Positions 7,781-51,050 of a stretch of 64,000 nt of DNA are shown here, in pieces. The position numbers and the translations under genes were made by a program. Below the pieces are notes generated by a model. It was not told the origin of the DNA, did not search any database, and saw nothing but the letters and a program-made list of their open reading frames with translations. Position 1 is the stretch's first letter. The number at the start of each line of letters is the position of its first letter. Source of the stretch: an uncultured Dehalococcoidales bacterium (GTDB taxonomy: Bacteria > Chloroflexota > Dehalococcoidia > Dehalococcoidales > BS750m-G39); contig CAZDHX010000003.1 of assembly GCA_964505425.1 (NCBI GenBank), forward strand, positions 28,004 through 92,003, in the 5' to 3' direction.

Positions 7781-7787
7781 TAAAAAA

Positions 7788-8246: not shown

Positions 8247-8252
8247 TTGCAG

Positions 8253-8283
8253 TTATTGTAAACCACAATAATCCGTTTGTCAA
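8253..8283 (-). promoter_or_regulatory. fur-feoAB promoter (minus-strand TTGACA-N17-TACAAT) overlapped by the palindrome TTATTGT-N5-ACAATAA
   Basis: -35 is plus-strand TGTCAA at 8278-8283 and -10 is plus-strand ATTGTA at 8255-8260. The perfect 7-5-7 inverted repeat at 8253-8271 covers the -10 and is a candidate Fur box. Confidence 0.55.
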
Positions 8284-8294
8284 TACCCCGGTCT

Positions 8295-9461: not shown

Positions 9462-9514
9462 ACGGAGTTCCTCAATGGCGCTCCGGCCGGCAATAGGCTC
9501 GTAGTCAGCAATCC

Positions 9515-10888: not shown

Positions 10889-10924
10889 TCAGCTCATTAC
10901 TCCGCCGCCATTTTACCATAAATC

Positions 10925-11731: not shown

Positions 11732-11734
11732 CTA

Positions 11735-14534: not shown

Positions 14535-14538
14535 GGCT

Positions 14539-17941: not shown

Positions 17942-19191
17942 TTTTGGTCCTCCTCCAGCCGAAAGATTTCTTTAACCATCTCGGCATAGTTTTTACTCCC
18001 GTTGACTTTTAGATAGTGGACGGGGTCTTTGAGAATCTTGCTGACGATGGCTTTGGTCATCATCTCCAGACTATACTGCTCCTCCTCGGTGAGGCGAGGC
18101 AGTTTTTTCCTGGTGCGCTCAAAATGGGAGCGGCGTATTGCTTCCGCCTTGCTCATCAGGGCACGAATAAGCGGCCTGACCTTAAATTCCTGCCACCAGG
18201 AAGCAAAATTGTCCAGTTCATCATCTATAATTTGCACCGCTTTCCGAATCTCACTTTCGCGTTGCTGGCGGTTTACCCTGGAAAGCCCGGTGAGGTCATC
18301 AATATTGTAGAGAAAGACGTTCTTAATCTGACCCACCGCCGGCTCCACATTGCGGGGGACGGCGATATCAATTATCACCATAGGAAGTGAGCGCTTTTCC
18401 ATCGCCCGCTTTACCTGACCAACGCTCAGAATGCGGTGCGGCGCCCCGGCGCAGGTAACAACGATATTGGTGGTGAGCAATTCATCACCGACCTTATTCG
18501 GGGTGAGCGGGGTGCCACCCAGTTGAGCCGCCAGACTTGAAGCCCTCTCCTCAGTCCGCCCGACAACCACCATCCGGGATATCCCCCGGTCTTTAGCGGC
18601 TTTGGCGACCAGCCTCCCCGCCTCCCCGGCACCGATGACCAGCATCTTGCCCCCCTTAAGTTCACCGACAACGCCGGCGGCTAAATCCACCGCCACCGAG
18701 CTGACGGAGAGGGCATTTCGGCTGATTCCCGTTTCCTCACGGACGCGCCTCCCCGTCCAGACGGCGCTCTGGAAGATATGGCGCAGTGGTAGATTGACCA
18801 TCCCCACCCTTTCCGCCGCCTCCAGGGCGTGCCCCACCTGACCCAGCACCTCAAATTCGCCGACTATCATTGATTCCAGACCGCTGGCGACACGGAACAG
18901 GTGCTCCACGGCTACTTTATCCTCAAGTAGATAGACATGCTTGAGCAGGGCGGCATCAGTGATACCCAGCCGCGCCTTAAGAAAGTCCAGGCTTGCCTTC
19001 TCGGCGTGGCGAGCGTCGCTACCAATGGTATAGACCTCGGTGCGGTTGCAGGTGGAGAGGATTATGCCCCGCGATATAAAAGAGCCAAGCAGGGGCAGGG
19101 CGTCATCGAGCTTCCGGCTGCTAATAGCCACCTTCTCGCGGATAGCCACCGGCGCCGTCTGGTGGTCTATGCCGACCAAGCTGATTCTCAT
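17938..19191 (-). CDS. hemA: Glutamyl-tRNA reductase
   Basis: 417 aa. LSTCNRTEVY, EHLFRVASGLESMIVGE and VIGAGEAG (NADPH fold). Confidence 0.93.
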   Translation of the reverse strand: MRISLVGIDHQTAPVAIREKVAISSRKLDDALPLLGSFISRGIILSTCNRTEVYTIGSDARHAEKASLDFLKARLGITDAALLKHVYLLEDKVAVEHLFRVASGLESMIVGEFEVLGQVGHALEAAERVGMVNLPLRHIFQSAVWTGRRVREETGISRNALSVSSVAVDLAAGVVGELKGGKMLVIGAGEAGRLVAKAAKDRGISRMVVVGRTEERASSLAAQLGGTPLTPNKVGDELLTTNIVVTCAGAPHRILSVGQVKRAMEKRSLPMVIIDIAVPRNVEPAVGQIKNVFLYNIDDLTGLSRVNRQQRESEIRKAVQIIDDELDNFASWWQEFKVRPLIRALMSKAEAIRRSHFERTRKKLPRLTEEEQYSLEMMTKAIVSKILKDPVHYLKVNGSKNYAEMVKEIFRLEEDQK

Positions 19192-19838
19192 CTCTTTGTC
19201 CCCATAAGCCTTTCAAGCAAGAAAGCCTTAGCTTTCTCCTCCCCACCCCTCTTCAAGAGGTCAAGCATAAAATCCAGGTCGAGGGCTTCCTGCCAATCGT
19301 CTCCAGTAAGTTTAACTCCCTGGCGCTTTAGCTCAGCGCGCACCTCGCCAATTAGACGAACCAGAGAAGCGTACTCATCGCCAAAATCTTTCTCCAGCCG
19401 GGTGCGTATTTTTCGTGCCAGAGCCGGGCTTACGCCGCCGGTGGAGACGGCAATACTCAGAGCTCCCCGTCGCATATAAGAGGGTAAAATAAAATCAGAA
19501 TTTTCCGCATCATCAGCCACATTGACCAGGACCGCCTTTTCTTGAGCCTCCTTTACTACCTGCCGATTAATCTCATTACTACTGGTGGCGGCAATGGCGA
19601 TGAGCGCCCCCTGTAAATCGCCGGGCTGATAGTTTCTGCGCAGCAATTTTACCTCCCCCCTCTCAACCAGCTCATTTATTTCCTGACATGGGTCGGGGCT
19701 GATTACCTCAACACTGGCGCCGCATTCAAGAAGTGCTCTCACCTTGCGCCGGGCAACCTCTCCCCCACCGACCACTACACACCTCTTCCCCTTAATCTTG
19801 AGAAATATTGGGTAAAACTCTCGGCTCAACTTCTTCAT
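19188..19838 (-). CDS. sirC: Precorrin-2 dehydrogenase / sirohydrochlorin ferrochelatase-type protein (SirC/CysG-N/Met8 family)
   Basis: 216 aa. FLKIKGKRCVVVGGGEVARRK (Rossmann fold) and SIAVSTGGVSPALAR. Confidence 0.85.
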   Translation of the reverse strand: MKKLSREFYPIFLKIKGKRCVVVGGGEVARRKVRALLECGASVEVISPDPCQEINELVERGEVKLLRRNYQPGDLQGALIAIAATSSNEINRQVVKEAQEKAVLVNVADDAENSDFILPSYMRRGALSIAVSTGGVSPALARKIRTRLEKDFGDEYASLVRLIGEVRAELKRQGVKLTGDDWQEALDLDFMLDLLKRGGEEKAKAFLLERLMGTKR

Positions 19839-21358
19839 CCCTTTTTCCTCAGTCCGGCGATGGTGTAAACAAGGTCCATATCAAGGCTATCACGGACCAA
19901 TTCGGCCAGCCTGTCATACTCGGCGTCACGCTGGTGGTCATCGCCGGCAAAACTAAGGGGCTGCCCCTTGGCGCGGGCAATCTGCCTCAGGATGCCCCAC
20001 CGGAGTTCTTGATTGTTAAATAGCCCGTGAATATATGTCCCCAGAACGCGCCCGCTCATGTCCAGGCAGCCATCCAGGGCGTCACACGATTTACTGGAGC
20101 GCTCCCTTATGCGAAAGGTGGCGTCTCCTTCACCGCTTTCCGTCCTGCCCATATGAATCTCGTAGCCTTCAAAGCTGATATTCCGGGCTTCGGCAAGAAG
20201 CCCACGCCCAGCGACGATACTGCCCTTTACCTGGTGAGTTTCCTTACTCGGCAGAAAAGCAGTGGTTAGCGGCAAAAGACCCAGCCCCTGGCTCTGCCGG
20301 ACGTGAGACTCCACACCATCGGGGTCATCTATAAATCTACCCAGCATCTGGTAGCCGCCGCAGATACCAATAATAAAAGCACCGCTCTGGTAAAGCTCTC
20401 TAATTCTGTTGGCTAACCCGTTAGCCTTTAGCCAATCCAGATCGGCTACCGTGGTCTTGCTCCCGGGAAGAATAATCAGGTCAGGGTGGTCCAGTTCTTG
20501 GCTAGAATTTACATAGCGCACCCCCACGCAACTCTCCTTGTCCAGCGGGTCGAAATCATCAAAATTGGAGATATGGGGCAGCCTGATGACGGCGATATCT
20601 ATTTGCGCCGAGCCTTGCTGATGCCTTCGCTGTTCCAGGGCTACCGAGTCTTCCTGGGCGATATGGATATCACGGAAATAGGGAATGACGCCGGCGATGG
20701 GAACGCCAGACCTTTCTTCCAGAAACCTTAGGCCCGGCTCAAGCAGTTTTTGGTCTCCCCGGAACTTATTTATCACCAACGCCTTGATGAGGCTCAGGTC
20801 TCCCGGTTTCAGCAGCCACAGGGTACCCAGCAGGGAGGCGAAGACGCCGCCGCGGTCAATATCGCCCACCAGTAACACCGGAGAGCGGCAGTGTCGGGCA
20901 ACTCTCATGTTCACCATCTCATCGCCCATAAGATTAACCTCAGCCGGACTGCCGGCGCCCTCAATAACCACCACCTCATACTGTGAGCGGAGCTTTCGCA
21001 GTGCGCCGGTCACCACCGGCCACAACTGAGACTTCAGCTTATAATAATCAGCCGCCGTTGTTACCATCTGCGGGCGTCCCAGCACCACCACCTGGGAGCG
21101 GCTATCGGCTTCCGGCTTGAGCAGGATAGGGTTCATCTCCACCGAGCAGGATATGCCCGCCGCCTCAGCCTGCACCGCCTGTGCCCGCCCGATTTCCCCT
21201 CCGTCAGGGGTAACATAAGAGTTCAGAGACATGTTTTGCGCCTTGAACGGCGCCACGCTGAAACCGTCCTGCCGGAAGATGCGGCACAGAGCCGTCACCA
21301 GCACGCTCTTGCCCACGTGGGAGGCAGTCCCCTGCACCATGATTACCCTTCCCCTCAT
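19835..21358 (-). CDS. cbiP: Cobyric acid synthase
   Basis: 507 aa. VQGTASHVGKS, FKAQNMSLNS and a C-terminal GATase domain (ICGGYQMLG). Confidence 0.92.
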   Translation of the reverse strand: MRGRVIMVQGTASHVGKSVLVTALCRIFRQDGFSVAPFKAQNMSLNSYVTPDGGEIGRAQAVQAEAAGISCSVEMNPILLKPEADSRSQVVVLGRPQMVTTAADYYKLKSQLWPVVTGALRKLRSQYEVVVIEGAGSPAEVNLMGDEMVNMRVARHCRSPVLLVGDIDRGGVFASLLGTLWLLKPGDLSLIKALVINKFRGDQKLLEPGLRFLEERSGVPIAGVIPYFRDIHIAQEDSVALEQRRHQQGSAQIDIAVIRLPHISNFDDFDPLDKESCVGVRYVNSSQELDHPDLIILPGSKTTVADLDWLKANGLANRIRELYQSGAFIIGICGGYQMLGRFIDDPDGVESHVRQSQGLGLLPLTTAFLPSKETHQVKGSIVAGRGLLAEARNISFEGYEIHMGRTESGEGDATFRIRERSSKSCDALDGCLDMSGRVLGTYIHGLFNNQELRWGILRQIARAKGQPLSFAGDDHQRDAEYDRLAELVRDSLDMDLVYTIAGLRKKG

Positions 21359-22725
21359 CTTCCCTCCTGACCGAATTTCTGGCAGTTGTCTATGAAACGC
21401 GCCGCCATTGAAGGCAGGCTGCCCATGTGAAGATGAATATAAGAAGCGAGCAGATTCATATTGTGGAACCCCTCACGGCGTTTGCCTTTATCAATAATAC
21501 AGTACGCCTTAGAAGCGTCAGTGTTTTTCTCCAATACGGACCAGTGGAACTCATGACCGCGCACGGTTTCCCCCTGGCGCAGGAGGGGACCATCGCCCAG
21601 AGCCTGGACTGTCCGATAGCCTAAGCTCAGGCGCGGGCTGTCAATCTGAGAGGAAAGCGGGATAGCCCCTGCCATGGGATATTCGTTGCCTTCTAAATCC
21701 CGAATACTCCTGCCGAGGTACATCAGCCCCCCGCACTCAGCATAAATTGGCATCCCGCGCCCGGCAGCAAGTTTTATTTCTTGCCTGATAGGCTTATTCT
21801 CCGCCAACTCAGCGGCATAAAGCTCAGGGAAGCCACCCCCGATATAGAGACCGGAGATATCCTGCGGCAGTTCTGCATCCTGCAGGGGGCTGAAGGGCAC
21901 AATTTCTGCCCCCCACGCCCCCAGAAGGTCTAAGCTGTCCTGATAGTAAAAGCTAAAAGCCTTGTCCCTTGCTACCGCAATCCTGGCCAGGGCGGGCTTG
22001 GGTTTTGGGGGGAATAATGCCACCTCGGCTTGCGGGACCTTTGCCTCCTCTGAGAATCGTAAAACCTGCGGTATATCAAGTGTCGCCTCACATTGTGCCA
22101 CCAAAAATTTTAGAAATTCCTTACTGGCTGGATCTTCCACCATAGGAACCAAGCCCAGATGTCTTTCCGGCAGGGACAGATTGTCGCGGCGGGGTAGATA
22201 ACCCAGCACGGCAATTTTGGTGTAATGCTCAATGGCTTCCCGGCAAAATCTGAGGTGCTCGTCGCTGCCGATGCCGTTGAGGATAACGCCGCCAAGGTTA
22301 AGAGCCGGGTCAAAAGCCTTATATCCGGCAACCATCGCCGCCAGGCTGCGCGCCCCCTTTCGGCTGTCAACCACCAGTATTACCGGCGCCCCGAGGAGTT
22401 TGGCTAACTCGGCGGTGCTGCCCTCTTCATTTATTGACGAATGCCCATCATAAAGCCCCATCACCCCCTCAATAACGGCAATGTCTTTACCGTGAACCGC
22501 CCGCCCGAAAAGCTCCAGCACAGCGTCACGGGACAAAAGCCAGGTATCCAGATTGCGAGAGGCTTCGCCGGTTACCCAGCTATGATAGCTGGGGTCAATA
22601 TAATCTGGTCCCGTCTTGAAGGGCTGCACCTTAAAACCTTTTTGGCGCAGAGCACCCATCAGCCCGGTAGCAACCGTCGTCTTGCCCACGCCGCTGGTGG
22701 TACCGGCAACAACTATCGCCCTCAT
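21355..22725 (-). CDS. cbiA: Cobyrinate a,c-diamide synthase
   Basis: 456 aa. AGTTSGVGKTT, PFKTGPDYIDP and YAECGGLMYL. Confidence 0.92.
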   Translation of the reverse strand: MRAIVVAGTTSGVGKTTVATGLMGALRQKGFKVQPFKTGPDYIDPSYHSWVTGEASRNLDTWLLSRDAVLELFGRAVHGKDIAVIEGVMGLYDGHSSINEEGSTAELAKLLGAPVILVVDSRKGARSLAAMVAGYKAFDPALNLGGVILNGIGSDEHLRFCREAIEHYTKIAVLGYLPRRDNLSLPERHLGLVPMVEDPASKEFLKFLVAQCEATLDIPQVLRFSEEAKVPQAEVALFPPKPKPALARIAVARDKAFSFYYQDSLDLLGAWGAEIVPFSPLQDAELPQDISGLYIGGGFPELYAAELAENKPIRQEIKLAAGRGMPIYAECGGLMYLGRSIRDLEGNEYPMAGAIPLSSQIDSPRLSLGYRTVQALGDGPLLRQGETVRGHEFHWSVLEKNTDASKAYCIIDKGKRREGFHNMNLLASYIHLHMGSLPSMAARFIDNCQKFGQEGR

Positions 22726-24272
22726 GACTGCTCCTGACCCAGGTCGTATTTTGCCCGGTAACCACGAGGGGTTACCATCCAGCCGCCAAGGGTAAATGTG
22801 GTTGAATTGCCGACAATGACGGTGGTGTTCATGCCAATCTCGTAGTCCAGCATGTGCTCCAAATCGGTGATTAATACCTCTTGCTCCTCCCGATAAGCAT
22901 TGGTAGCAATGCCTACCGGCGTTGATGGCGAGCGATGCTTTAAGATGATTTCCCTGGCTTTAATTAGCTGGCGCTGGCGCTTCTGGCTCTTAGGATTGTA
23001 GAGAATTATTACAAAATTTCCCTCCGCCGCCAGCTCCAGCCGGCGGCTAATTTCCTGCCACGGGACGAGGTAATCGCTGAGGCTTATGCTGACAAAATCA
23101 CCATTTATGGGCGCACCGAGCAAAGCAGCACTGGCTCCCAGCAGGGGTACGCCCGGTATCACCTCTATATCTATATCCCCCGCCTGCTCGCCAAGGATTT
23201 CGCCCACCAGCCCGGCCATGCCGTAGATGCCACTGTCGCCGCTGGAGACGAGAGATACTATTCTTCTCTCCTTAGCCAAGCTAATCGCCGTCTTCACCCG
23301 CTCCACCTCTTCTCCCATGCCGCTAGCGATAACCTTTTTATCGCCGAGGTAAGGCTCAATCAGTTTGATATAGCTCTTATAGCCAACGACTACTTCACTA
23401 TTACTGATAGCCTCTCTGGCTCTAAAGGTCATTTGCTCCGGGTCTCCGGGACCGATGCCGACCAGAAAAAGTTTTCCCCCAGCGGCAGAGCGGGCAACGG
23501 CAATGGTCACTGTCCGCCTAAAACTCACCTTGGGGATAATAAGAGAGTCGCCGCCGCTGCTCAGTAGCGCCGCCGACTCACATACCGCCGGCGTCCCCAC
23601 GTGTTTCAGCACCAGGGGCGAAGGGTGGGATTTCACCTTGCCCAGCGCTTCCTTATCAAAGTACTCTACGGGCAGGCGGTATTTGCGGGCAAATTTTGAG
23701 AGCCCGGGCTCGTTCTTCTTGATATCTATGGTGGCGATATTTCGGATGCCTTTGATAGATAGTCCATATTCTGAAAAAACCTGGCTGACGGCATTTTCTA
23801 TCTCCAGAGCTGCCGTCCCGCGGTTACAGCCGATGCCAACCACCAGATTTTGAGGGATTACCTTGCTTACCTCGGAAGCAGTGGTGACCACCGCACTAGC
23901 GCCGATAAGAGAAGCTATTTTTCCGGCCATCTCGTTAGCGCCACCCTCGTGCCCCGAGAGCAGGCTCACGCTGAATGAGCCGCCTTCATCAACCACCACC
24001 ACACCCGGGTCTTTATGCTTGTCCCTGATTTCGGTAGCTATTAACCGCACGGCGATACCCACCGCCATGATAAGCACCAGGTGCCGGTAGCGGCCGAAAA
24101 CCTCTCTGACCACTTCTCCCACCGGAGAGGAAAATGGGTATTCCCCCGGCTTTGGCTCAAGAGCAAACTTTTGCGGCAGGTAAAGGTGGCCTGCGGGAAA
24201 CCGCTTTTGTAAGCGCTGACCGAGAGCCACCCCCTTTTCGGTTATGGCGACAATGGCTATGTCCTCTTTCAC
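22722..24272 (-). CDS. cbiG/cbiH: Fused CbiG (cobalt-precorrin-5A hydrolase) / CbiH (cobalt-precorrin-3 C17-methyltransferase)
   Basis: 516 aa. The N-terminal ~270 aa are CbiG-like (GIGCNRG..., PAVCESAALL). The C-terminal part is a class III methyltransferase (LFLVGIGPGDPEQMT, SSGDSGIYGMAG). Confidence 0.88.
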   Translation of the reverse strand: MKEDIAIVAITEKGVALGQRLQKRFPAGHLYLPQKFALEPKPGEYPFSSPVGEVVREVFGRYRHLVLIMAVGIAVRLIATEIRDKHKDPGVVVVDEGGSFSVSLLSGHEGGANEMAGKIASLIGASAVVTTASEVSKVIPQNLVVGIGCNRGTAALEIENAVSQVFSEYGLSIKGIRNIATIDIKKNEPGLSKFARKYRLPVEYFDKEALGKVKSHPSPLVLKHVGTPAVCESAALLSSGGDSLIIPKVSFRRTVTIAVARSAAGGKLFLVGIGPGDPEQMTFRAREAISNSEVVVGYKSYIKLIEPYLGDKKVIASGMGEEVERVKTAISLAKERRIVSLVSSGDSGIYGMAGLVGEILGEQAGDIDIEVIPGVPLLGASAALLGAPINGDFVSISLSDYLVPWQEISRRLELAAEGNFVIILYNPKSQKRQRQLIKAREIILKHRSPSTPVGIATNAYREEQEVLITDLEHMLDYEIGMNTTVIVGNSTTFTLGGWMVTPRGYRAKYDLGQEQS

Positions 24273-25018
24273 TTTTCAAAACCTCGGCCGTATAGCTTTG
24301 AACGCTGCTTCTTTTCCTTTGCCTCCAGAAAAGCGCCCACCAGTATCAATGCCTGTTTTTTTATGCCCGATGCCCTCACCTCTGCCACCAGCTTCTTCAG
24401 GGTAGTCCGCAGCATGACCTCGTCCTGCCAGCTAGCTTTATAGATTACCGCCGCCGGGGTTTCGGGGGGATAGCCGCCGGCAAGCAGTTCAGCAACAACC
24501 TTTTCTATAAGCGAGGCGCTCAGGAAAATCGCCATGCTGGACTGGTGCCGGGCCAGGCTTTTGAGGTTTTCCAGAGCCGGCACCGGCGTCTTGCCCTCCA
24601 GGCGGGTGATGATAACCGTCTGGGAAATTTCGGGAACAGTTAGCTCCGTCTTTAAGGCGGCGGCGGCGGCGAATAGGGAGCTCACGCCGGGGATAATCTC
24701 GTAGGCTATGCCCTTACCGTCCAGCACCGCCATCTGCTCCTGGATAGCGCCGTAGATGCTCGGGTCGCCACTCTGCAGCCGGGCAACGACCTTCCCTTCC
24801 TTGACCGCATTGACTATAATCCCGGTTATCTCCTCTAGAGTGAGCGAGGCGCTTCTATAAATCTCAGCCTTCTCCGGAGCAAAGCGGCAGACCTCCGGGT
24901 TTACCAGCGAATCGGCGTAGATAATGACGTCCGCCCGCTTGATGACATTCCTTGCCCGGATAGTTAAAAGCTCCGGGTCACCGGGTCCACCACCGATAAA
25001 ATATACCTTAACCGCCAT
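24269..25018 (-). CDS. cbiF: Cobalt-precorrin-4 C11-methyltransferase
   Basis: 249 aa. VYFIGGGPGDPELLT, QSGDPSIYGA and IPGVSS. Confidence 0.9.
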   Translation of the reverse strand: MAVKVYFIGGGPGDPELLTIRARNVIKRADVIIYADSLVNPEVCRFAPEKAEIYRSASLTLEEITGIIVNAVKEGKVVARLQSGDPSIYGAIQEQMAVLDGKGIAYEIIPGVSSLFAAAAALKTELTVPEISQTVIITRLEGKTPVPALENLKSLARHQSSMAIFLSASLIEKVVAELLAGGYPPETPAAVIYKASWQDEVMLRTTLKKLVAEVRASGIKKQALILVGAFLEAKEKKQRSKLYGRGFEK

Positions 25019-25019
25019 T

Positions 25020-25742
25020 TTATTTCCGCAATATCAGGAGAGAGAAATAATCAACCTTTTTTCCTTTTAGCTGGCTGATGTCACGGACTATCTCCTCGTC
25101 CTGGGTCGTGCCTCTCCTGACATAGACGCACTTATCGGTCAGTTTTAAGTCCTCAAGAATGGCGAGGAGCTTATCAAAAACGTTATTCATCTTAATAAAA
25201 ACTACCGTCTCAAAGTTGGCTATTGTCTCCCTGATAATCTTATCTTCCCGGTTACCCGAGATTATGGCAATACGCTCGTCCTCACTGGCAAGGGGGACTA
25301 TCGCCCGGGCGGCGGCGGCATTAATCGATGATATCCCGGGGATAACCTCAACCACTACCTCGGGGTGGCTCTTTTTTACCGTCTCCAGGATATAAATAAA
25401 GGTCCCGTAGAGAAGAGGGTCACCAACGTTAACAAAGGCGCAGTCCTCCCCCTTCTCAAGATGCCGCCAGATTGTATCCGCCGCCTGCTGCCAGTAATCT
25501 TTGAGCTGCTCCTTGCCTCTCAGCATGGGAAAAACCAGCTCAACAACCTTCTGTTCTGGCTCCTTTATAAGACGGGCAACAATGGACCTTGCGTAGCTCT
25601 TGCTTTGCCTGTCTTTTAATGGCACGAAGATAACCGCCACACGGGACAGGACATTATACGCCTTCAGTGTCAAGAGCTCCGGGTCACCCGGCCCCACCCC
25701 CACCCCGTAGAGGCGGCCAATTCCCGTTTTTTTGTTACCCAT
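25020..25742 (-). CDS. cbiL: Cobalt-precorrin-2 C20-methyltransferase
   Basis: 240 aa. LYGVGVGPGDPELLTLKA, GDPLLYGTF and IPGISS. Confidence 0.88.
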   Translation of the reverse strand: MGNKKTGIGRLYGVGVGPGDPELLTLKAYNVLSRVAVIFVPLKDRQSKSYARSIVARLIKEPEQKVVELVFPMLRGKEQLKDYWQQAADTIWRHLEKGEDCAFVNVGDPLLYGTFIYILETVKKSHPEVVVEVIPGISSINAAAARAIVPLASEDERIAIISGNREDKIIRETIANFETVVFIKMNNVFDKLLAILEDLKLTDKCVYVRRGTTQDEEIVRDISQLKGKKVDYFSLLILRK

Positions 25743-25765: not shown

Positions 25766-27028
25766 TTACAATTCAAAATCAGCGGGCCAGGGGCTATGAA
25801 GGCACTCCTCATAATAGCGGGCGGGCAGGCTAAGCATGGACGCCTTGGTCATCAAGGATGCCCAGTACATACCACGCCGGGTAACCTCAACATGTGTGGG
25901 GTGTTCTTCGATGAGATTCAGTAGCTTGAGCATAAGCATGAACCTCCCCATTGCCCGCTCCATCTTGACCCCGAAGCGCTTTTCAAATTCGGACTTCTCC
26001 ACCCTCAGCCGATATAGTCCCATCATGAACCACCGCCTCATCACCCGGTCTGGCGGCGTGATTGTCCCCGTAGCTATAGGTAAACCTGCTTCCACCCTTT
26101 TTATATACTCCCTGAGGGAGAAGGTATTGACATAGAACAAGCCCCCGATTTTGGTATAGGCGCTAATCCCCACCCCGATATTCTCGTCGCGGGTGCAGGT
26201 GACATACTGCGCCCCACCCCCATTGGTAAACTCCCAGCAGGTATCCTGCTTGTAGCCGTTAGCAGTAAGGAAATCAATAACGGTATAGAACATCTCCCGT
26301 TCTAAAGACGAGGGCGGGGTAGTGAGCCGCCCCTCCTGGACATCGCGATACCAGCGGGTATAGGGGAAGAGCATAAGAGGATAATACGCAATTTGATGGG
26401 CACCGGTCTTAGCCGCCACCTCCAGGTCACCCAGCAGGCTGGGGATTTGCTGCCGGGGTAGGCTATGCATCAGGTCAATGCTGACGTAGAACCCCTCACT
26501 GAGCAAAAGCTCTATCGCCTTGAGCACCGCCCTGGCATCATAGCCCCGCCCCATACCCCTCAGGACTTCAGCGTCAAAGGACTGCACCCCCAGGCTGATT
26601 TTGGTGACGCCGGCCTGCTTCACTGCCCGGCACATCTCAGCGTTTATATCCTCAGAGTTTGCCTCAAAGCCGACCTCGCCCTCCATCTCAAACCTGGACC
26701 TTACAAAATCCATAATCTCAACTATCCCCTCCCAGGTGAGGCTGGGGGTGCCGCCGCCAAAATAGACATCGCCTATCTTGATTTTCCCCAGTTTGTCACG
26801 GTAGGTCTGGATTTCTTTTTTCACCGCCTCAATATAAGGGGCGACCTTGCTCGGGGAATAGCGCAGGCTATGAAAACAACAGTAGGAGCAAAGATGGCGG
26901 CAGAAGGGCAGGTGAATATACCAGCCAATGCCATCCAGGGCCGGCGGAAATTCTGGCTCAATCGGGGAGAACCTCGTCCCTCTAAGCCCCCTCTTTATCA
27001 TTGACGGCGCCATTCTCTCTGCAATCAA
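25766..27028 (-). CDS. HemN/HemW-like radical-SAM protein (coproporphyrinogen dehydrogenase family) embedded in the cbi operon
   Basis: 420 aa. YIHLPFCRHLCSYCCF (CxxxCxxC), GGGTPS and a HemN_C-like tail. The TTG start lies 1 nt after the cbiET stop, and the stop lies 23 nt before the cbiL start. Confidence 0.8.
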   Translation of the reverse strand: MIAERMAPSMIKRGLRGTRFSPIEPEFPPALDGIGWYIHLPFCRHLCSYCCFHSLRYSPSKVAPYIEAVKKEIQTYRDKLGKIKIGDVYFGGGTPSLTWEGIVEIMDFVRSRFEMEGEVGFEANSEDINAEMCRAVKQAGVTKISLGVQSFDAEVLRGMGRGYDARAVLKAIELLLSEGFYVSIDLMHSLPRQQIPSLLGDLEVAAKTGAHQIAYYPLMLFPYTRWYRDVQEGRLTTPPSSLEREMFYTVIDFLTANGYKQDTCWEFTNGGGAQYVTCTRDENIGVGISAYTKIGGLFYVNTFSLREYIKRVEAGLPIATGTITPPDRVMRRWFMMGLYRLRVEKSEFEKRFGVKMERAMGRFMLMLKLLNLIEEHPTHVEVTRRGMYWASLMTKASMLSLPARYYEECLHSPWPADFEL

Positions 27029-27029
27029 G

Positions 27030-28250
27030 TTATTCCTCCTTCTTTACTCCGCTGACGACAAAGACCGGATTCAAGGTTTCGAAGCGGGTAAGCTCCATAA
27101 CACCAGTACTGCGGGCTATATTTACCAGGGTTATATCAGGCACAAAGCCCCTGGCTTTAAGGGCGTCGACGGCGGCGCTCAGGTTTTCCAGGGCAACGAT
27201 GTTCATAACAATGCGCCCGCCGGGCTTTAGCCTTCGGTTGACCAGGTCCAGTATCTCCTTAACTCTCCCCCCGCTACCCCCGATAAAGACGGCGGTGGGG
27301 TCGGGCAAACTGTTTAAACCATCCGGGGCAAAGGTCTTGACCACCTCAACATTAGAGGCATTAAATTTTCGGATATTTTTTCTGATTATGGCTACATCTT
27401 TTTCGTTCTTTTCTATAGCGTAGATATGCCCTTTTCTGACAAGAAAGGAGGCTTCAATAGATACCGCCCCCGAGCCGGCGCCAATATCCCAGACGATACT
27501 GTTTTCAGTAAGCGCCAGCTTGGCAAGGCTTATTGACCTCACCTCCTGCTTGGTGATAAGCCCCTCCCGGCGGCGATGGAAGTTTTCTTCGGGAATCCCC
27601 ATTATTCGCTGAGGTCTCGGCTTGGATTTCTCCCTTAATAAAATCAGGACGTTGAGTGGAGAAAACTTCATCTTGACCAAGCCGCGTAAATCGGTCTTGA
27701 CGACCTTTTCTTCTTTGCTGCCAAGGTCCTGGCAGACATAAGCCCAGTAGCCGTCAACGCCGTGTTCCAGCAACACCCTGGCAATAGCCGCCGGGGTATG
27801 CTTATTATCAGTAAAAATGCCGATTTTAGCATTTAACCCCACCACCCCGACAATCTCCGCGATGGGCCTGGAGTGGACGCTGACAAAGACGGCGTCCTCC
27901 CAGCTTTCTTTAATGCGGGCAAAGGCCAGCTGCATGGCGCTTACGTTGGGTATTATGTCAATAACGCTCTTGCCCAACTTAGCCGTCAGATAGCCGGCTA
28001 TGCCGTAAAAATTGGGTTCACCGGAAGCCAGCACGACCATTCGTTTCCGCCCCAGGTTTCTCTCGATTAAATCGGCTACTTCAGCTAGGTTATTTTTGAT
28101 AGTTATTTTCTCCCCGCTCAGCGAGGGAAACATCCGAATTAATCGCCTACCACCGAAGACAATCTCCGCCCGGTTTAGCAGGCGGCGTGCTTCCGGCAAC
28201 AAGCTTCCCTCGGGTGCCACCCCAATAATATGGACCCTATGTCTTGACAT
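27030..28250 (-). CDS. cbiE/cbiT: Fused CbiE/CbiT (cobalt-precorrin-7 C5-methyltransferase / cobalt-precorrin-6B C15-methyltransferase, decarboxylating)
   Basis: The N-terminal half is CbiE-like (HIIGVAPEG, ASGEPNFYG). The C-terminal half is CbiT-like (VWDIGAGSGAVSIE). The ATG at 28250 with a GGGAGGG Shine-Dalgarno is preferred over the track start at 28277, which overlaps cbiD. Confidence 0.88.
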   Translation of the reverse strand: MSRHRVHIIGVAPEGSLLPEARRLLNRAEIVFGGRRLIRMFPSLSGEKITIKNNLAEVADLIERNLGRKRMVVLASGEPNFYGIAGYLTAKLGKSVIDIIPNVSAMQLAFARIKESWEDAVFVSVHSRPIAEIVGVVGLNAKIGIFTDNKHTPAAIARVLLEHGVDGYWAYVCQDLGSKEEKVVKTDLRGLVKMKFSPLNVLILLREKSKPRPQRIMGIPEENFHRRREGLITKQEVRSISLAKLALTENSIVWDIGAGSGAVSIEASFLVRKGHIYAIEKNEKDVAIIRKNIRKFNASNVEVVKTFAPDGLNSLPDPTAVFIGGSGGRVKEILDLVNRRLKPGGRIVMNIVALENLSAAVDALKARGFVPDITLVNIARSTGVMELTRFETLNPVFVVSGVKKEE

Positions 28251-29328
28251 CAGCCCTCCCCAGAATAATGCCGTCATAGCTGCTCATGATACATTCCACC
28301 TCAAGTTTTCCCCCCACCTTATCACGGCACTTTTCTGCCGCCAGCAGACAGAGCTTATTACAGAATCTTTGGCTATGTTCCGGGGGGAGCATCTTGCGGA
28401 GGTGATTGGCGGTGACGGCTCCTCTCAAGGACCGGACTACCTTCTCGGGCACACCACAACCTGCCGCCACTCCCGCCAGGAAACCGATGTCCACCCTGGA
28501 ATCGCTGACATTGGTATACATGTGTCCGGCGGCAAGCTTGCTCAGCTTACCCATCATGCCCCAGATGGTTACTTTCTCAAAAGACCTCCGGGCGCATTGC
28601 TCAAGTGAGTAGCCGATAAAATCTCCGGCTTGAACGAAACATTCTTCAGCCAGTTTCAGCTCGCCCTGGGCGAATTTCTCGCTTCTCCTGCCCGTGGTCA
28701 ATACTACCTGGCGGCAGCCGCAAGCTACGGCTACATCCAACGACTGAAAGAGGCAAGCCTTATAGGCGCTAACCGAATAGGGGATGACAACCCCGGTAGT
28801 GCCCAAAATTGAGATGCCACCGATTATCCCCAGACGCGGATTCAGCGTTCTTCTGGCTAACCCTTCTCCTTCGGCTACCGAGATTACTACTTCAATGCCC
28901 TTGCCGTCATTTTCTGGCATTACCTCTCTCACCGAGCTCTCTATCATCCGGCGGGGCACGGGGTTAATCGCCGCCATACCAATCGGTATTTCCAGCCCGG
29001 GCTTGGTAATTATCCCCACTCCCTCCCCTCCCCCGATATCAATCCCCGGCTTATCCTTCCAGGAGACCTTAGCCCAGATTTCCGCCCCATGGGTGACATC
29101 CGGGTCGTCACCGGCGTCTTTTATCACCGAGCACACAGCCTGGCTTTTTCCGAAGGTGCAGTGGCTGATTTTGAATAGAGCCTGTCGTCCGGCAGGGAGA
29201 GAAACCTGAACTTGCTTGACCGCCTCCTGCTTGAGCAGAGCGATAGTCGCTGCCTGCGCTGCGGCGGCAGCACAGGCTCCGGTGGTATAGCCGGAGCGCA
29301 GAGACCGTTTATCTCGTCTCACCGTCAT
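28237..29328 (-). CDS. cbiD: Cobalt-precorrin-5B C1-methyltransferase
   Basis: 363 aa. LRSGYTTGACAAAAA, KDAGDDPDVTHG and GTTGVVIPYS. Confidence 0.9.
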   Translation of the reverse strand: MTVRRDKRSLRSGYTTGACAAAAAQAATIALLKQEAVKQVQVSLPAGRQALFKISHCTFGKSQAVCSVIKDAGDDPDVTHGAEIWAKVSWKDKPGIDIGGGEGVGIITKPGLEIPIGMAAINPVPRRMIESSVREVMPENDGKGIEVVISVAEGEGLARRTLNPRLGIIGGISILGTTGVVIPYSVSAYKACLFQSLDVAVACGCRQVVLTTGRRSEKFAQGELKLAEECFVQAGDFIGYSLEQCARRSFEKVTIWGMMGKLSKLAAGHMYTNVSDSRVDIGFLAGVAAGCGVPEKVVRSLRGAVTANHLRKMLPPEHSQRFCNKLCLLAAEKCRDKVGGKLEVECIMSSYDGIILGRADVKT

Positions 29329-30170
29329 ACGGCTTTCCTCCCCATCACTCTCAATAGCTCCCGCCTCGCCTCACCAATAGTCAGCGGCATCTCCGGGAAA
29401 TCTATTCCCTCTCTCTTTTGCAGAATCTCAACGAGATGGGCTACCCGTGGCAGCCTTAGCTCTGCTTCCCTAATCATATCGGTATCGGTAAACACCTCCG
29501 CTGGCGGTCCTTCGGTGACTATCTTACCCTTACTCATAATAGCGACGCGGTCGGAGAATAGAGGCACCAGCTCAACATCATGGGTAGCCATTATCATGGT
29601 CGTTCCCCTCTCCTGGTTCAGTTTCCGGAGTAAACGCATAATGGAACTGGCACCCTTGGGGTCCAGACCGCTGGTCGGTTCATCCAATAAAATTATTTCT
29701 GGCTCCATCGCCAGGACGCCGGCAATAGCCACCCGCCTTTTCTGCCCGAAGCTCAAGGTGTGAATGGCTCGGTCGGGAAGCTCGGCGGCACCCACCAATT
29801 TCAAGGCTTCGGCGGTTCTCCGCGTCACCTCAGCCGGCTCTAGCCCCAGGTTCACCGCGCCAAAGGCGACATCCTGCCCCACGGTAGCGCCGAAAAGCTG
29901 GTCGTTAGGGTCTTGAAAGACCATCCCCACCCGCCGGAAAATCTCTTCGTCTCTGAAGAAACGAAGCTCCCTGCCGTCCAGAAATACCTTGCCCAAGGAC
30001 GGTTTTAGTAAGCCGTTTAGCTGTTTCAGTAGCGTTGTCTTGCCGCAACCGTTAGCCCCCAGAAGGGCTAAGAATTCGCCGCCCCCTAACTCCAGGTTGA
30101 TTTTACCTAGAGCCGGGGTAAAACCGTCATAGCTAAAGGACAAGGCTTCGGTCTTTATCATGCTCTCCAC
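29325..30170 (-). CDS. cbiO: ECF cobalt transporter ATPase
   Basis: 281 aa. Walker A GANGCGKTT, signature LSFGQKRRVAIAG and Walker B ILLDEPTSGLD. Confidence 0.9.
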   Translation of the reverse strand: MESMIKTEALSFSYDGFTPALGKINLELGGGEFLALLGANGCGKTTLLKQLNGLLKPSLGKVFLDGRELRFFRDEEIFRRVGMVFQDPNDQLFGATVGQDVAFGAVNLGLEPAEVTRRTAEALKLVGAAELPDRAIHTLSFGQKRRVAIAGVLAMEPEIILLDEPTSGLDPKGASSIMRLLRKLNQERGTTMIMATHDVELVPLFSDRVAIMSKGKIVTEGPPAEVFTDTDMIREAELRLPRVAHLVEILQKREGIDFPEMPLTIGEARRELLRVMGRKAV

Positions 30171-30940
30171 TGCCCGATAAGATAGAGAATTGCCAGCACG
30201 GCGGTTAAACCAACGGCAGCCATAAAATCCTTCCGGCCAAAGTGTCCGGCATAATCAACGGCCAGAGCGCCGCTGTAACCTCGCGCTATCATCGCCTCAA
30301 AGACCCTCTCCGCCCGGTCGTAGGCTCGTAAGACCAAAATACCGCCCAGCGTGCCCACCGACCTCATACCCCGCCGCCAGTTGTCGTAGCCCAAGCGTAC
30401 CCTCTGGGCATCTTTTACGGCTATCGCCTCCTCGATAAGGACAAAGATGTAGCGATAAATCAGCAGCGACAGCTCAACAAAGACTTTAGGCAACCGGAAC
30501 CAGCGAGCCGCCCTGAGTAGCCGGTGGGCTGGCGTGGACATACCCAAGAACAGAATTAGTGACATGCCACCGATGACGCGGCACATGATTAAGAGACCAT
30601 GAGCCAGACCCTCTTCGTAGCCCACCAGGTCGAGTCCCAAAAAGGGGACGGCAAACAAAGGGGTGGTGCCATAAAAGAATAGCTGCGTAATCAGCACCAC
30701 TGCCGCCATGACCAGAGGCATAATCAGCCTCAGCATAAGTAGCCTTGGCGGAATTCTGATAGCCAGCAGGGTAGCCAGGCAAAAAACAGCGATGGCTATC
30801 GGCGTATAGATGCTCGGCGATAAGAGATTAATCACCAGGGCAACCACGGTAAAGGCTGTCTTGGTGCGTGCCTCTATCCCGGTCACCCAGTTCTCTCTGT
30901 GGGCGAAGGCATCGGAAAAAATACCGCTTTTATCAAACAT
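30158..30940 (-). CDS. cbiQ: ECF cobalt transporter T component
   Basis: 260 aa polytopic membrane protein in the cbiMNQO position. It carries a CbiQ-like RA..R motif region (AERVFEAMIARGY). Confidence 0.85.
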   Translation of the reverse strand: MFDKSGIFSDAFAHRENWVTGIEARTKTAFTVVALVINLLSPSIYTPIAIAVFCLATLLAIRIPPRLLMLRLIMPLVMAAVVLITQLFFYGTTPLFAVPFLGLDLVGYEEGLAHGLLIMCRVIGGMSLILFLGMSTPAHRLLRAARWFRLPKVFVELSLLIYRYIFVLIEEAIAVKDAQRVRLGYDNWRRGMRSVGTLGGILVLRAYDRAERVFEAMIARGYSGALAVDYAGHFGRKDFMAAVGLTAVLAILYLIGQWRA

Positions 30941-30960
30941 CTATATCAGCCAGCAGCGCT

Positions 30961-31260
30961 TCACCTCCCCGCTTTTTCAGCAATAAGCCTCCTCCAGTAG
31001 TAGCCGGTAACAAATCCACCCACTGCCCCACCGAAGGCGAAAACAAAGAGCAACAGGTCACCTTTATCGGTGTTGATGAAAGGCTCGCTTGGTTCCCTGC
31101 CGGCATCAGTGGCATATTTTTCAATGACGCTAACGTCCACCCCTCCCCAGGGACCCTCCTCTCCCTCAGGTACCTGCTTGGACAGGGCAAGCCACCCCCA
31201 GACGGCTAGAGCCACCAAAACGACCACGATAACAGTGGTGATTATCCTGGAACTTTTCAT
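30961..31260 (-). CDS. cbiN: Cobalt transport protein CbiN
   Basis: 99 aa with two TM helices flanking a soluble loop, in the position between cbiM and cbiQ. Confidence 0.8.
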   Translation of the reverse strand: MKSSRIITTVIVVVLVALAVWGWLALSKQVPEGEEGPWGGVDVSVIEKYATDAGREPSEPFINTDKGDLLLFVFAFGGAVGGFVTGYYWRRLIAEKAGR

Positions 31261-32051
31261 TAGTCACCTCCTTTTACCAGACTGGGCACTGGCTTGAAAG
31301 CTCCGGGGATTATGCGGGTTAATAACTCCGGCCGGCGGTGATAGACGAATGTTACCACTCCCCCGGTGAATAACCCCTCCAGAATGCCCAGTGGCAACTG
31401 AGTGGGAGCGAAGGCAACGGCAATGGCACCGAACATGCTCCATAATGAGCCAGTACCGTGTAAAGCCGAGGCTAGCTCAAAAGAGGTTGTAGCGTATGTT
31501 GCCCAGTCACCCAAGAGTCCGGCGGCGAAGGCAGCCACAAATATGGGGGCGTTGAACCTCCGGAACAAAACAAAGACACCAAAGCCAACGAAAGAACCAA
31601 CCAGAGCCATAGAAACGATATTAGCCCCCCAGGTAGTTATACCGCCGTGTGCCAGAAACAGGGCCTGGATAAGAAGGGCCAGCGCCCCGAGAACAGTGCT
31701 GATAAACGGCCCCACCAGGATTGCCCCCAGGGGGGTGCCGCAGGGGTGGGAACAGCTTCCCGAAACCGGGACCGGGATGGGGAAAACGGAAATTAGGAAT
31801 ATCAGCGCCCCGGCGATGCCGAGCAGAGGCAGCAGCCCTCTTACCTCTCTGGTCTTCCTTCTGATGATGATAATGCCAATGACCACAAATACGGCGGCTA
31901 TCACGTACCATATCGCTGCCCAGCTGGCGGGTAGAATCCCCTCAGCGATGTGCATGGCATATGCCGGGGTGGGGCACAATAACAGCCCGATGGCAAGCAC
32001 CAGTGCCAAGGCAATATGAGTCCTGAACCAGCTATAACCTTTATTGAGCAT
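31260..32051 (-). CDS. cbiM: Cobalt ECF S component CbiM, with a cleavable signal peptide exposing MHIAEG
   Basis: 263 aa. ...LLLCPTPAYA|MHIAEGILP: an AxA cleavage site sits directly before the metal-binding Met-His N-terminus typical of CbiM/NikM. Confidence 0.88.
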   Translation of the reverse strand: MLNKGYSWFRTHIALALVLAIGLLLCPTPAYAMHIAEGILPASWAAIWYVIAAVFVVIGIIIIRRKTREVRGLLPLLGIAGALIFLISVFPIPVPVSGSCSHPCGTPLGAILVGPFISTVLGALALLIQALFLAHGGITTWGANIVSMALVGSFVGFGVFVLFRRFNAPIFVAAFAAGLLGDWATYATTSFELASALHGTGSLWSMFGAIAVAFAPTQLPLGILEGLFTGGVVTFVYHRRPELLTRIIPGAFKPVPSLVKGGD

Positions 32052-33072
32052 TCAACCTACCTCCAGCAATCTTTAATAGAGTATTAACCGTAGCCACCGC
32101 CAGGGCGCTGCCGCCCCGAGTTCCGGCTACGGTGACATATGGTATATCCCGTTTCATTAATTCATCCTTTGATTCCTTCGCCTGCACAAAACCGACCGGC
32201 ATCCCCACAACAAGAGCCGGTCTTACCCCGTCATTATCAATCAACTCCAGCAGAGCCAGGAGGGCGGTGGGGGCATTGCCGATGGCGACTATGGCACTAT
32301 TAAGCCTCGCCCCCAGATGACGCATTGCCGCCGCGGCCCGGGTGGTATTCGGTTTTAGCCCCTCCGCTTCATCCATGGCACAAGAAACAGAACAGCCGCA
32401 GGCTTCAGCCAGACGCCGATTAATGCCGGCAGCTACCATCCGAACGTCGGTAAAGATAGGACTGCCTTTAGCTATGGCGCTTATGCCACCGGAGACCGCC
32501 GAGGAGCTGAACCTTACCAAGGGAACAAGCTGGGGATCGCCACCGGCATGGACAACATGCTTTACTACCATTCGCTCCTCTGCGGAGATTTTTAGCGAGG
32601 GAGGTAAAAGTCCTTCCACAATCTCCATACTCCTCTGCTCAATGTCCTGGGGGGAAGCCAGCGAAAGATGGGCATCCGGCAAAAGCTCCGGAGCCGCTTC
32701 CTGAATGCGCCTTGCCACGCGAGCTATTAGAAGTTCATCGTTACCGAGGGTATTGGCAGCAACAAATTGCACCTTTGGATAAATGCCCCTGAGCTTCTCA
32801 ATAAGCTGAGGGATGTCCTCGGTGATGTGCCGCCCTCTAAAAAGAAAGTAGGGCACGATTACTATCCGCTCCACCCCCCACCCTGCCAGAGACGCCACCG
32901 CTTCCTCAAAAGTGGGGCGATTAAACTGGAGTGCCGCCCCGATAACCTCAACGCCGGGGGCTAGGAGGGGCTTTACCCCTTCGCTGAGCCTCTTCAAGGT
33001 CTCAGTGACCTCGACACTACCCCGTTCACCACGACTGCCGTGGCATAAGATAACTATCCCCGTCTGCGGCAT
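32041..33072 (-). CDS. cbiX/cbiC: Fused small CbiX (sirohydrochlorin cobaltochelatase) / CbiC (cobalt-precorrin-8 methylmutase)
   Basis: The N-terminal ~120 aa are GIVILCHGSRG...VIVPYFLFRGRHITEDIP (CbiX-S type). The C-terminal ~210 aa are CbiC-like (HAGGDP, IFTDVRMV, IGNAPTAL, VVGMPVGFV). ATG 33072 is preferred because the track start at 33141 lies on the -35 hexamer. Confidence 0.85.
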   Translation of the reverse strand: MPQTGIVILCHGSRGERGSVEVTETLKRLSEGVKPLLAPGVEVIGAALQFNRPTFEEAVASLAGWGVERIVIVPYFLFRGRHITEDIPQLIEKLRGIYPKVQFVAANTLGNDELLIARVARRIQEAAPELLPDAHLSLASPQDIEQRSMEIVEGLLPPSLKISAEERMVVKHVVHAGGDPQLVPLVRFSSSAVSGGISAIAKGSPIFTDVRMVAAGINRRLAEACGCSVSCAMDEAEGLKPNTTRAAAAMRHLGARLNSAIVAIGNAPTALLALLELIDNDGVRPALVVGMPVGFVQAKESKDELMKRDIPYVTVAGTRGGSALAVATVNTLLKIAGGRLNAQ

Positions 33073-33098
33073 ATTACACAACCCGACCTGATTAAAAA

Positions 33099-33141
33099 CA
33101 AGTCTGCTTGTTAGTATACAAGCGCCGATTTTACCTGTCAA
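33099..33141 (-). promoter_or_regulatory. cbi/hem super-operon promoter (minus-strand TTGACA-N17-TATACT) with the overlapping half-site array CTTGT-N6-ACAAG-N4-CTTGT
   Basis: -35 is plus-strand TGTCAA at 33136-33141 and -10 is plus-strand AGTATA at 33113-33118. Inverted pentamers at 33119-33123, 33108-33112 and 33099-33103 span the -10 and the TSS. The leader to ATG 33072 is only ~30 nt. Confidence 0.6.
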
Positions 33142-33167: not shown

Positions 33168-33965
33168 TTACCGGCTCTTCTTCAGGCGCAGGTCGATAAG
33201 CTCGTAAGCCAGCTCTTCTTCCTGCTGCAGCCTCTTAATCAGCCCGGGGATAGCGTCATCGGTGCAGACCACGGTAAAAGGCAAGCCACAGCGGGCAGCC
33301 TCAATGGCGGCTTCGGTAACGCCGTAAAGATAGTGGGGCTCAATACCAATTCGTCTCAGCGAAACCAGAGCCTCAATGCCGATAGCCCCAAGCTGCTGAT
33401 TATCGGCGGCGCGGGTTTTTAACCGTTTCCGGTCAACCTGCCTTGAGCCACCCTTCTGAATGCTCGGCACCTGCAGGATAGTTATCCTGCCCCTGGTCAA
33501 TTCCACCAGTCCTTCAATGCTAGCCACGTCCACATCCTCACCCCGCCTCACGCTTGATACGGCAATACCCCTGGCGCCGCTCTTTGTCTGAGTGGCGGCA
33601 AAGAGCAGACCGTCCTTCATCTTAAGCCCCACCGCCTGCCCCTGATCTATATCGGACTCAGCGATGGCAGCACAGACGGTAATATTGGTCACTGCCTGCT
33701 CTACCATGGAAGCGTAGTCCCTGAGCTCCCGTAGTATCTTGAGCATCCAGTTAACTCCCTTAGTGCTCACCCGGTAGTGAGAGCGAGCGGTTGAGACAAC
33801 GAGGTCCTCATTCACCAACTGATGAATATAGTCTGATATTGCCTGCGGTGTGATGCCCAACTTAACGGCGATGCTCTTCTGCTGAATACCGGGGCCAGAG
33901 GTGGCAATCTCAACCAGTATCTGAAATCTGGTGGCGGCATTCTTATTCTGCAGTATCTCTACCAT
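33168..33965 (-). CDS. Winged-helix transcriptional regulator with a ~190-aa uncharacterised C-terminal domain (archaeal COG1497-like by recollection)
   Basis: 265 aa. N-terminus TRFQILVEIATSGPGIQQKSIAVKLGITPQAISDYIHQLVNEDLVV is a wHTH. It lies 5 nt downstream of the CDF gene, so it is probably co-transcribed with it. Confidence 0.6.
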   Translation of the reverse strand: MVEILQNKNAATRFQILVEIATSGPGIQQKSIAVKLGITPQAISDYIHQLVNEDLVVSTARSHYRVSTKGVNWMLKILRELRDYASMVEQAVTNITVCAAIAESDIDQGQAVGLKMKDGLLFAATQTKSGARGIAVSSVRRGEDVDVASIEGLVELTRGRITILQVPSIQKGGSRQVDRKRLKTRAADNQQLGAIGIEALVSLRRIGIEPHYLYGVTEAAIEAARCGLPFTVVCTDDAIPGLIKRLQQEEELAYELIDLRLKKSR

Positions 33966-34897: not shown

Positions 34898-34915
34898 CTC
34901 ACTCCTGCCTAAGAC

Positions 34916-35002
34916 GAAAAAACCCGTGGTGCCTGGTCCCACGGGTTCAAGTCCCGCTGCTGCAAGTTCAGCCCGGTTCTATAAAGACCTGTTCCAGGCT
35001 CT
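34916..35002 (-). promoter_or_regulatory. NiCo (czcD-motif) riboswitch with an intrinsic-terminator expression platform
   Basis: The minus strand reads AAGAGCCUGGAACAGGUCUUUAUAGAACCGGGCUGAACUUGCAGCAGCGGGACUUGAACCCGUGGGACCAGGCACCACGGGUUUUUU. The conserved ACAG / CGGGCUGAAC / GCAG / CGGGAC / CGUGGGAC blocks match my recollection of the NiCo consensus. P1 is CCUGG/CCAGG. The terminator stem ACCCGUGG/CCACGGGU plus U6 shares its 5' arm with the aptamer. A CDF exporter lies downstream. Confidence 0.7.
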
Positions 35003-35008
35003 TTAAAA

Positions 35009-46415: not shown

Positions 46416-51050
<4,635 letters not shown>

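Follow-up and report, generated by a model that had tools for sequence, protein, structure and literature searches.

The hem/cbi operon and its radical SAM gene

The window analysed here is a 64,000-nucleotide (nt) stretch of contig CAZDHX010000003.1 from an uncultured Dehalococcoidales bacterium, and it carries a hem/cbi operon in which a gene for a HemN-family radical S-adenosylmethionine (SAM) protein, here called rSAM, is embedded. The operon runs on the minus strand from 33141 to 13260 and consists of 19 co-directional genes identified with Pfam and NCBIfam; a preliminary description of this DNA had also counted 19 co-directional genes, from 33072 down to 13260, and their start is placed here at 33141. 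The first biosynthetic gene is a cbiX-cbiC fusion (32041-33141), followed by cbiM, cbiN (30961-31260), cbiQ and cbiO, which encode a cobalt energy-coupling factor (ECF) transporter (29325-32051), cbiD (28237-29328), a cbiE-cbiT fusion (cbiET, 27030-28277), rSAM (25766-27028), cbiL (25020-25742), cbiF (24269-25018), a cbiG-cbiH fusion (22722-24272) and the amidase genes cbiA and cbiP (19835-22725). The remaining genes, sirC, hemA, hemC, a cobA-hemD fusion (15523-17031), hemB and hemL, occupy 13260-19838. Four fusions are present in this one operon (CbiX-CbiC, CbiE-CbiT, CbiG-CbiH and CobA-HemD).

The rSAM open reading frame (ORF) encodes 420 amino acids (aa) from a TTG start, and a ribosome-binding site read from the sequence (AGGAGG, 27035-27040, minus strand) lies 6 nt upstream, within the 3' end of cbiET. 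The TAA stop of cbiET (27032-27030) leaves a gap of 1 nt before rSAM, and 23 nt separate rSAM from the cbiL start at 25742, as originally described. A scan of the rSAM flanks detected no promoter-like site and no surplus of terminator-like sites, and from its tight spacing within one operon the gene is predicted to be co-transcribed with the cbi genes. The Pfam Radical_SAM domain (PF04055) was matched with an E-value of 1.7e-23 (84 bits, cutoff 29.5), which places the protein in this superfamily, while the match to HemN_C was marginal (24.9 bits, cutoff 24).

The preliminary description had also stated that the operon lacks cbiJ, and this was borne out. The Pfam CbiJ family (PF02571) gave no match in any ORF of the operon, rSAM included, or among the other window ORFs scanned; some larger ORFs at 45-64 kb were covered by a CbiJ hidden Markov model (HMM) and tblastn instead of Pfam. 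Neither an unfiltered search of the whole window with this HMM, built from 121 sequences, nor tblastn of the window with the G. lovleyi CbiJ as query returned anything. The absence of cbiJ is established for the operon and the 64-kb window rather than for the whole genome.

Linkage to cobamide genes and distribution relative to cbiJ

The gene order cbiD-cbiET-rSAM-cbiL-cbiF-cbiG(H) was found in 11 distinct Dehalococcoidales-type operons from species-representative genomes and long metagenome contigs (window/L001, L002, L003, L004, L006, L008, L009, L011, L083/L084, L087 and L168). In all 11 the start of rSAM abuts or overlaps the cbiET stop, and between species the rSAM proteins share 60-84% identity, matching CbiD and CbiET. 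Since the same slot is occupied in 10 further species-level relatives, the placement of rSAM is not due to chance; the cbiET-rSAM-cbiL slot is fixed among relatives down to ~60% identity.

A different context was found in two Spirochaetales-type loci (L010 and L169), where the rSAM copies (55-56% identity) have no ring-synthesis neighbours. There, rSAM is the first gene of an operon that also encodes an ECF S-component-like protein, a CbiQ-like T component and two fused ATPases, and a cobalamin riboswitch (84.7 bits) is located ~150 nt upstream of it. A second cobalamin riboswitch with btuFCD adjoins this operon, and cbiP, cobA and a NicO/DUF1007 metal transporter gene are also present. Each locus has two riboswitches (L010, 4741-4942 and 9585-9849; L169, 4714-4915 and 9558-9822), one preceding btuFCD and an ABC-2 pair and the other preceding rSAM and the ECF transporter. 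The S-component encoded with rSAM has 186 aa and is weakly Trep_Strep-like.

The linkage to cbi and cobamide genes noticed in the window therefore recurs in other genomes, and two independent signals connect the rSAM clade with cobamide metabolism, namely its fixed slot in the cbi operon and a cobalamin riboswitch in another phylum.

More distant relatives were found in related surroundings. Sister clades at 34-41% identity adjoin CobN-like chelatases, BtuF-like binding proteins and ExbB/TonB components, contexts that resemble the E. coli chu operon, in which chuW lies among heme-uptake genes. Three such regions (L173, 4035-12324; L175, 879-8785; L176, 1-11235) have the relative between a CobN-like chelatase and BtuF-like, ExbB, DUF2149 or TonB genes, and their gene content predicts clusters for metallotetrapyrrole uptake or processing. 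Both archaea (Ca. Methanolliviera) and a bacterium have such CobN-adjoining relatives.

Other copies lack such an association. Two Methanocellales metagenome-assembled genomes (MAGs) encode rSAM copies at 66-67% identity with an intact cysteine triad (see below) and without cobamide neighbours (L005/L082, 10001-11260; L007, 10001-11260); the gene stands alone near a tRNA gene and RuBisCO-like, DUF362 and amidohydrolase genes, suggesting transfer between domains. A clade at 33-35% identity within the Dehalococcoidales (L012-L025) showed no conserved neighbours in neighbourhood clustering. Among the species-representative genomes, seven MAGs had the cbi-linked clade, 14 had this stand-alone clade and none had both, which is weak evidence of exclusivity given incomplete MAGs and a scan by two sequence motifs.

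The Methanocellales copies and the stand-alone clade would suit a general HemW- or HemN-like housekeeping protein, with a heme or other iron-sulfur (Fe-S) role, that sits in the operon owing to the adjacent hem genes, since hemA, hemL, hemB, hemC and hemD share the operon with rSAM. However, the slot is fixed between cbiET and cbiL, the cobalamin riboswitch lies directly upstream of rSAM in another phylum, and the hem genes end at uroporphyrinogen III, with no late heme genes seen in the window. We regard hitch-hiking of this kind as very improbable.

The preliminary description had proposed rSAM as a possible non-orthologous stand-in for the missing CbiJ. On this reading, rSAM would use its Fe-S centre(s) to reduce cobalt-precorrin-6A to 6B, a step that CbiJ carries out with NAD(P)H. 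Several observations are in line with this idea. The CbiD-to-CbiT step has no assigned gene in the operon, cbiJ was found neither in the window nor in any related operon, and rSAM lies near cbiD and cbiET, whose enzymes flank the missing step. The cysteine triad could be the site of a cluster for electron relay. The Bacillales-type outgroup has cbiJ and no rSAM, and the ingroup appears to have ancestrally had rSAM and no cbiJ. Proven producers are acknowledged to have the same gap, with cbiJ reported as missing in Geobacter (PMC7726332, PMC3543383) and likewise in Desulfoluna (PMC7031245) and Desulforhopalus (PMC12908670), and HutW is reported to use NADPH directly, giving a reduced tetrapyrrole (PMC10114669).

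The distribution of the gene speaks against replacement. Six independent operons were sampled without regard to rSAM, through CbiD homologues and a CbiET-anchored metagenome scan, and in this small sample rSAM was present in one (L087) and absent from five (L086/L088, L089, L091, L094 and L178). None of these five has cbiJ, and in them cbiET runs cleanly into cbiL. In a bootstrapped, distance-based CbiET tree the operons without rSAM nest among those that bear it: L088 grouped with the window, L006 and L087 (bootstrap 80), L091 with L004 (97), and L178 and L089 with L003 (53). This nesting implies that the ancestor of these operons probably had rSAM and that no fewer than three losses followed. 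The gene could instead have moved elsewhere in these genomes, but all 11 Dehalococcoidales-type copies seen lie in cbi operons, and CbiD clusters (more than 120 reaching 66% identity) outnumber rSAM clusters (~40 at ≥65%) about threefold. Loss is thus more likely than relocation.

A second sample of 24 other CbiET-anchored metagenome loci, each with at least five core cbi genes, gave a similar picture. A linked cbiJ was seen in only two, a lower bound since some loci are truncated, and rSAM in none. At the level of clusters, then, rSAM does not appear wherever CbiJ is absent, for it is missing from five of the six sister operons and from the 22 other clusters without linked cbiJ. The Spirochaetales-type copies, moreover, are wired to a transporter. 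To our knowledge the characterised reactions of the HemN family are oxidative or methylating, not plain two-electron reductions. CbiJ itself has no sequence or fold kinship with rSAM, being an NAD(P)H-dependent protein of ~250 aa (PF02571), and the two have only their pathway context in common. The proposal that rSAM substitutes for CbiJ is therefore poorly supported and, in our view, highly unlikely to be right.

Since most of the clusters sampled lack cbiJ, its absence does not by itself justify naming an adjacent gene as the substitute. CbiJ was found solely in the Bacillales-type loci L096, L103 and L128, by tblastn with the G. lovleyi CbiJ and by HMMs of four and 121 sequences; all proteins recovered in a CbiJ profile search were from Bacillales or Trichlorobacter, so that this search was not informative on the Dehalococcoidia. 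The Bacillales-type order is cbiJ-cbiC-cbiD-cbiET-cbiL; cbiJ is flanked there by cbiX and cbiC and does not share the slot of rSAM. The CbiX-CbiC fusion of the window coincides with the absence of cbiJ.

An in-situ swap of rSAM for cbiJ in close relatives was considered and rejected, as cbiET abuts cbiL when rSAM is missing. Comparison of near-identical operons (L087 with L088, L178 and L091) revealed no gene that co-varies with rSAM. Candidates for CbiJ in cbiJ-less clusters of other lineages proved to be nitroreductase-family or FAD_binding_6 proteins and were discarded. ORFs of these two types, the latter an oxidoreductase, recur in cbi clusters without a detectable cbiJ (L121, 8049-8897; L122, 3273-4004; L145, 4010-4783; L112, 15113-15874; L141, 7161-7931; L150, 7121-7879; L162, 7172-7897). 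The nitroreductase-family ORFs precede cbiF, and in L121, L122 and L145 they come immediately after cbiET. From their sequences these ORFs could be BluB-like, CobR-like or alternative reductases.

Family, motifs and candidate functions of rSAM

The preliminary description had left room for an ordinary HemN or HemW protein, and this was not what was found. The rSAM protein scored below the cutoff of every curated HemN-type NCBIfam model: PRK08629 (199 bits, cutoff 355), ChuW/HutW (TIGR04107, 185.6 bits, cutoff 400), HemW (TIGR00539, 165.3 bits, cutoff 205.4), the HemN/CpdH equivalog (TIGR00538, 132.6 bits, cutoff 324.95) and HemZ (98 bits, cutoff 321). BLASTP distances to the E. coli references were about equal (ChuW 118, HemN 110 and HemW 106 bits). 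A distance-based (neighbour-joining) tree placed the rSAM clade and its remoter relatives in one superclade apart from HemN, HemW and ChuW, and a database search delimited the clade at ~56 clusters with ≥49% identity, the next matches having ≤41%.

A profile of 21 clade members matched HemN (1OLT) in the PDB with an E-value of 3e-43, and the class C methyltransferase NocN with 4e-24 over the radical SAM core only. The AlphaFold (AF2) model of rSAM, with a predicted local distance difference test score (pLDDT) of 89.6, was aligned by Foldseek to HemN 1OLT with an E-value of 1.2e-25 and a template modelling (TM) score of 0.76 over 419 columns; the next matches were below 0.42. The modelled protein has the full-length HemN fold, with a radical SAM partial barrel, an N-terminal segment before it and a C-terminal domain of the HemN_C type.

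The CX3CX2C motif (C43, C47 and C50) and the GGGTPS motif (residues 91-96) are invariant in the 21 clade members, as are Y37, H39, E122, Q149, R161 and D185. Together with GGGTPS, these residues align with Y56, H58, GGGTPT, E145, Q172, R184 and D209 of HemN, which we take to be SAM contacts. In other respects rSAM departs from HemN. Identity is only 22-24%, the N-terminus is shorter, a C-terminal WP motif is present, HemN F310 and Q311 are not conserved, and the genomic context is one of corrin and not heme genes. The fourth cysteine of HemN (C71) corresponds to F52, which is invariant in the clade; phenylalanine is found at this position in HemW and ChuW as well.

An additional feature is a triad of cysteines, C264, C278 and C409, which is nearly invariant in the clade. 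Neither the sister clades nor E. coli HemN, HemW or ChuW have such a triad. In P0056, the most divergent clade member, all three are replaced together. This joint loss and the clade-specificity of the triad suggest that the three cysteines may function together as one site. The protein lies within a known superfamily and fold, and in our literature searches we found neither this clade nor its cysteine triad, nor its double linkage to cobamide genes. These searches also returned no HemN-like or radical SAM protein linked to cbiJ, cobalt-precorrin-6A or cobalamin riboswitches.

The two other suggestions of the preliminary description, a corrin or heme chaperone and a branch enzyme, are still viable candidates. 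HemW carries heme, and rSAM could analogously be a carrier that binds a cobalt tetrapyrrole, either a labile intermediate or a finished corrinoid, and passes it to the next enzyme or client without ring chemistry. Precedent for an accessory protein encoded inside a corrin operon is provided by CobE of the aerobic B12 operon, a non-enzymatic and non-essential carrier of intermediates that hands on hydrogenobyrinic acid; CobE, however, is a small unrelated protein with no Fe-S cluster and no SAM. Dispensability and repeated loss are expected of a helper, and the association with uptake systems would suit a receiving and hand-off role. HemW and rSAM share an intact core with CX3CX2CxF, in which phenylalanine stands for the fourth HemN cysteine, and C278 aligns with HemW W255, presumably a residue of the heme-binding motif.

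That motif, HNxxYW (H250-W255 in E. coli HemW, W255 included), which we take to be the proposed heme-binding motif of HemW, is nevertheless absent from rSAM, where the aligned positions are a gap, Q274, T277 and C278. The protein is no nearer to HemW than to ChuW or HemN, and it misses the HemW cutoff. Before W36-Y37 of rSAM there are 35 clade-conserved residues, a segment missing from E. coli HemW, which starts nine residues before the equivalent tyrosine, and rSAM has in addition ~40 extra C-terminal residues. The cobamide context is a further difference from HemW. A carrier function is thus rather unlikely, although a non-essential helper role is plausible.

ChuW and HutW free iron from heme anaerobically, and a comparable enzyme could methylate and open imported corrinoids or metallotetrapyrroles that are unusable to the cell, freeing cobalt for de novo synthesis. 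The ChuW/HutW model gave the highest score among families of defined function, ChuW was the top BLASTP reference, and Peripla_BP_2, FecCD and ABC ATPase uptake genes adjoin rSAM in some loci, as they do chuW. The ChuW residue given as R311 in PMC10114669 did not correspond to the numbering of the Sakai annotation. The CobN-like proteins beside the sister clades, and the cobalt transporters and NiCo riboswitch in or beside the operon, also fit such a role. On the other hand, the score falls far under the ChuW cutoff, identity is ~23-27%, rSAM belongs to a separate superclade, and its linkage is to cobamide and not heme genes. The uptake-type neighbours are controlled by B12 riboswitches or lie within cbi operons, and no heme markers were seen among them. 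Tight spacing between cbiET and cbiL inside a biosynthetic operon would be odd for a catabolic enzyme, and repression by B12 rather than cobalt in the Spirochaetales-type loci is not obvious for metal salvage. We know of no anaerobic corrinoid breakdown. Ring opening by rSAM is therefore decidedly unlikely.

The explanation we tentatively favour, with slightly less than even confidence, is that rSAM is an accessory enzyme of the HemN/HemW/ChuW family, dedicated to cobamides, that performs SAM radical chemistry on a cobalt tetrapyrrole. It draws on the observed fold, motifs, operon position, riboswitch control and loss pattern, from which enzyme status, a corrinoid substrate and a role for the triad are deduced. 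In the proposed mechanism, the [4Fe-4S] cluster would cleave SAM reductively, and the 5'-deoxyadenosyl radical would act on a cobalt tetrapyrrole bound by the C-terminal domain, either directly or, as in ChuW and class C methyltransferases, through a second SAM molecule. The substrate would be a corrinoid that the cell imports or that the operon produces, and it would leave the enzyme in a tailored or processed form. The cysteine triad could provide an extra metal, cluster or cobalt-ligand site. Such a reaction would be useful but dispensable, which would explain a gene that was ancestral to the operon type and then lost repeatedly.

Some points weigh against an accessory enzyme of this kind. 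The choice of an enzyme over a chaperone comes from the N-terminal segment and the operon position, and HemW too retains an intact radical SAM core. The Methanocellales copies have no cobamide genes around them, and we know of no naturally ring-tailored corrinoid that is the product of such an enzyme. In some relatives these operons have also shed cbiA and cbiP, so loss is not strict proof of dispensability.

A bolder possibility, which we consider doubtful, is that rSAM would be an enzyme of a new type with cobalt tetrapyrroles as substrates, either a radical-SAM/Fe-S cobalt-precorrin-6A reductase or the first anaerobic opener or tailor of the corrin ring, with the triad as an auxiliary redox or cobalt site. 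If true, the reductase version would fill the long-standing gap of the missing CbiJ in anaerobic producers, at least in this lineage. All steps of the anaerobic corrin pathway are generally considered to be assigned, save for gaps such as the missing CbiJ of Geobacter and Desulfoluna, and the Dehalococcoidia are known mainly as B12 consumers. The rSAM clade is a concrete candidate for new corrinoid chemistry or trafficking in uncultured bacteria of the Dehalococcoidia type.

Regulation and neighbourhood of the operon

Directly upstream of cbiX-cbiC is a minus-strand gene (33168-33965) for a regulator with a MarR-type winged helix-turn-helix and a DUF7839 domain. A MarR-DUF7839 gene precedes cbiX-cbiC in all related operons with a visible 5' end (seen in the window, L002, L003, L006, L083, L086, L087 and L178), and its product may be a regulator devoted to corrin synthesis. 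Next to it are a CDF-family cation efflux gene (33971-34942, minus strand) and, upstream of the latter, a nickel/cobalt (NiCo) riboswitch identified with Rfam (34932-35006, minus strand), so that the order on the strand is NiCo riboswitch, CDF efflux gene, MarR-DUF7839 regulator and cbi operon. A NiCo riboswitch is also found in L087 (4371-4439).

No cobalamin riboswitch was detected with Rfam anywhere in the window, nor in any of the nine Dehalococcoidales-type operons scanned in this way (the window and eight loci). Control of the Dehalococcoidales-type operon may therefore lie with cobalt or the MarR-DUF7839 protein and not with B12.

Downstream of the operon, the minus-strand block at 1654-13210 contains two GH130 phosphorylase-like genes, feoB-feoA-fur, a TreT-like trehalose synthase gene, a gene for an MscS-like channel fused to DUF5752, otsB and otsA, and it looks like a compatible-solute and iron-uptake neighbourhood. 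Elsewhere in the window, on the plus strand, an ORF of 274 aa without a Pfam match (48198-49022) overlaps the start of the ORF at 49019-50035, the product of which is similar to the D-component of 2-hydroxyglutaryl-CoA dehydratase.

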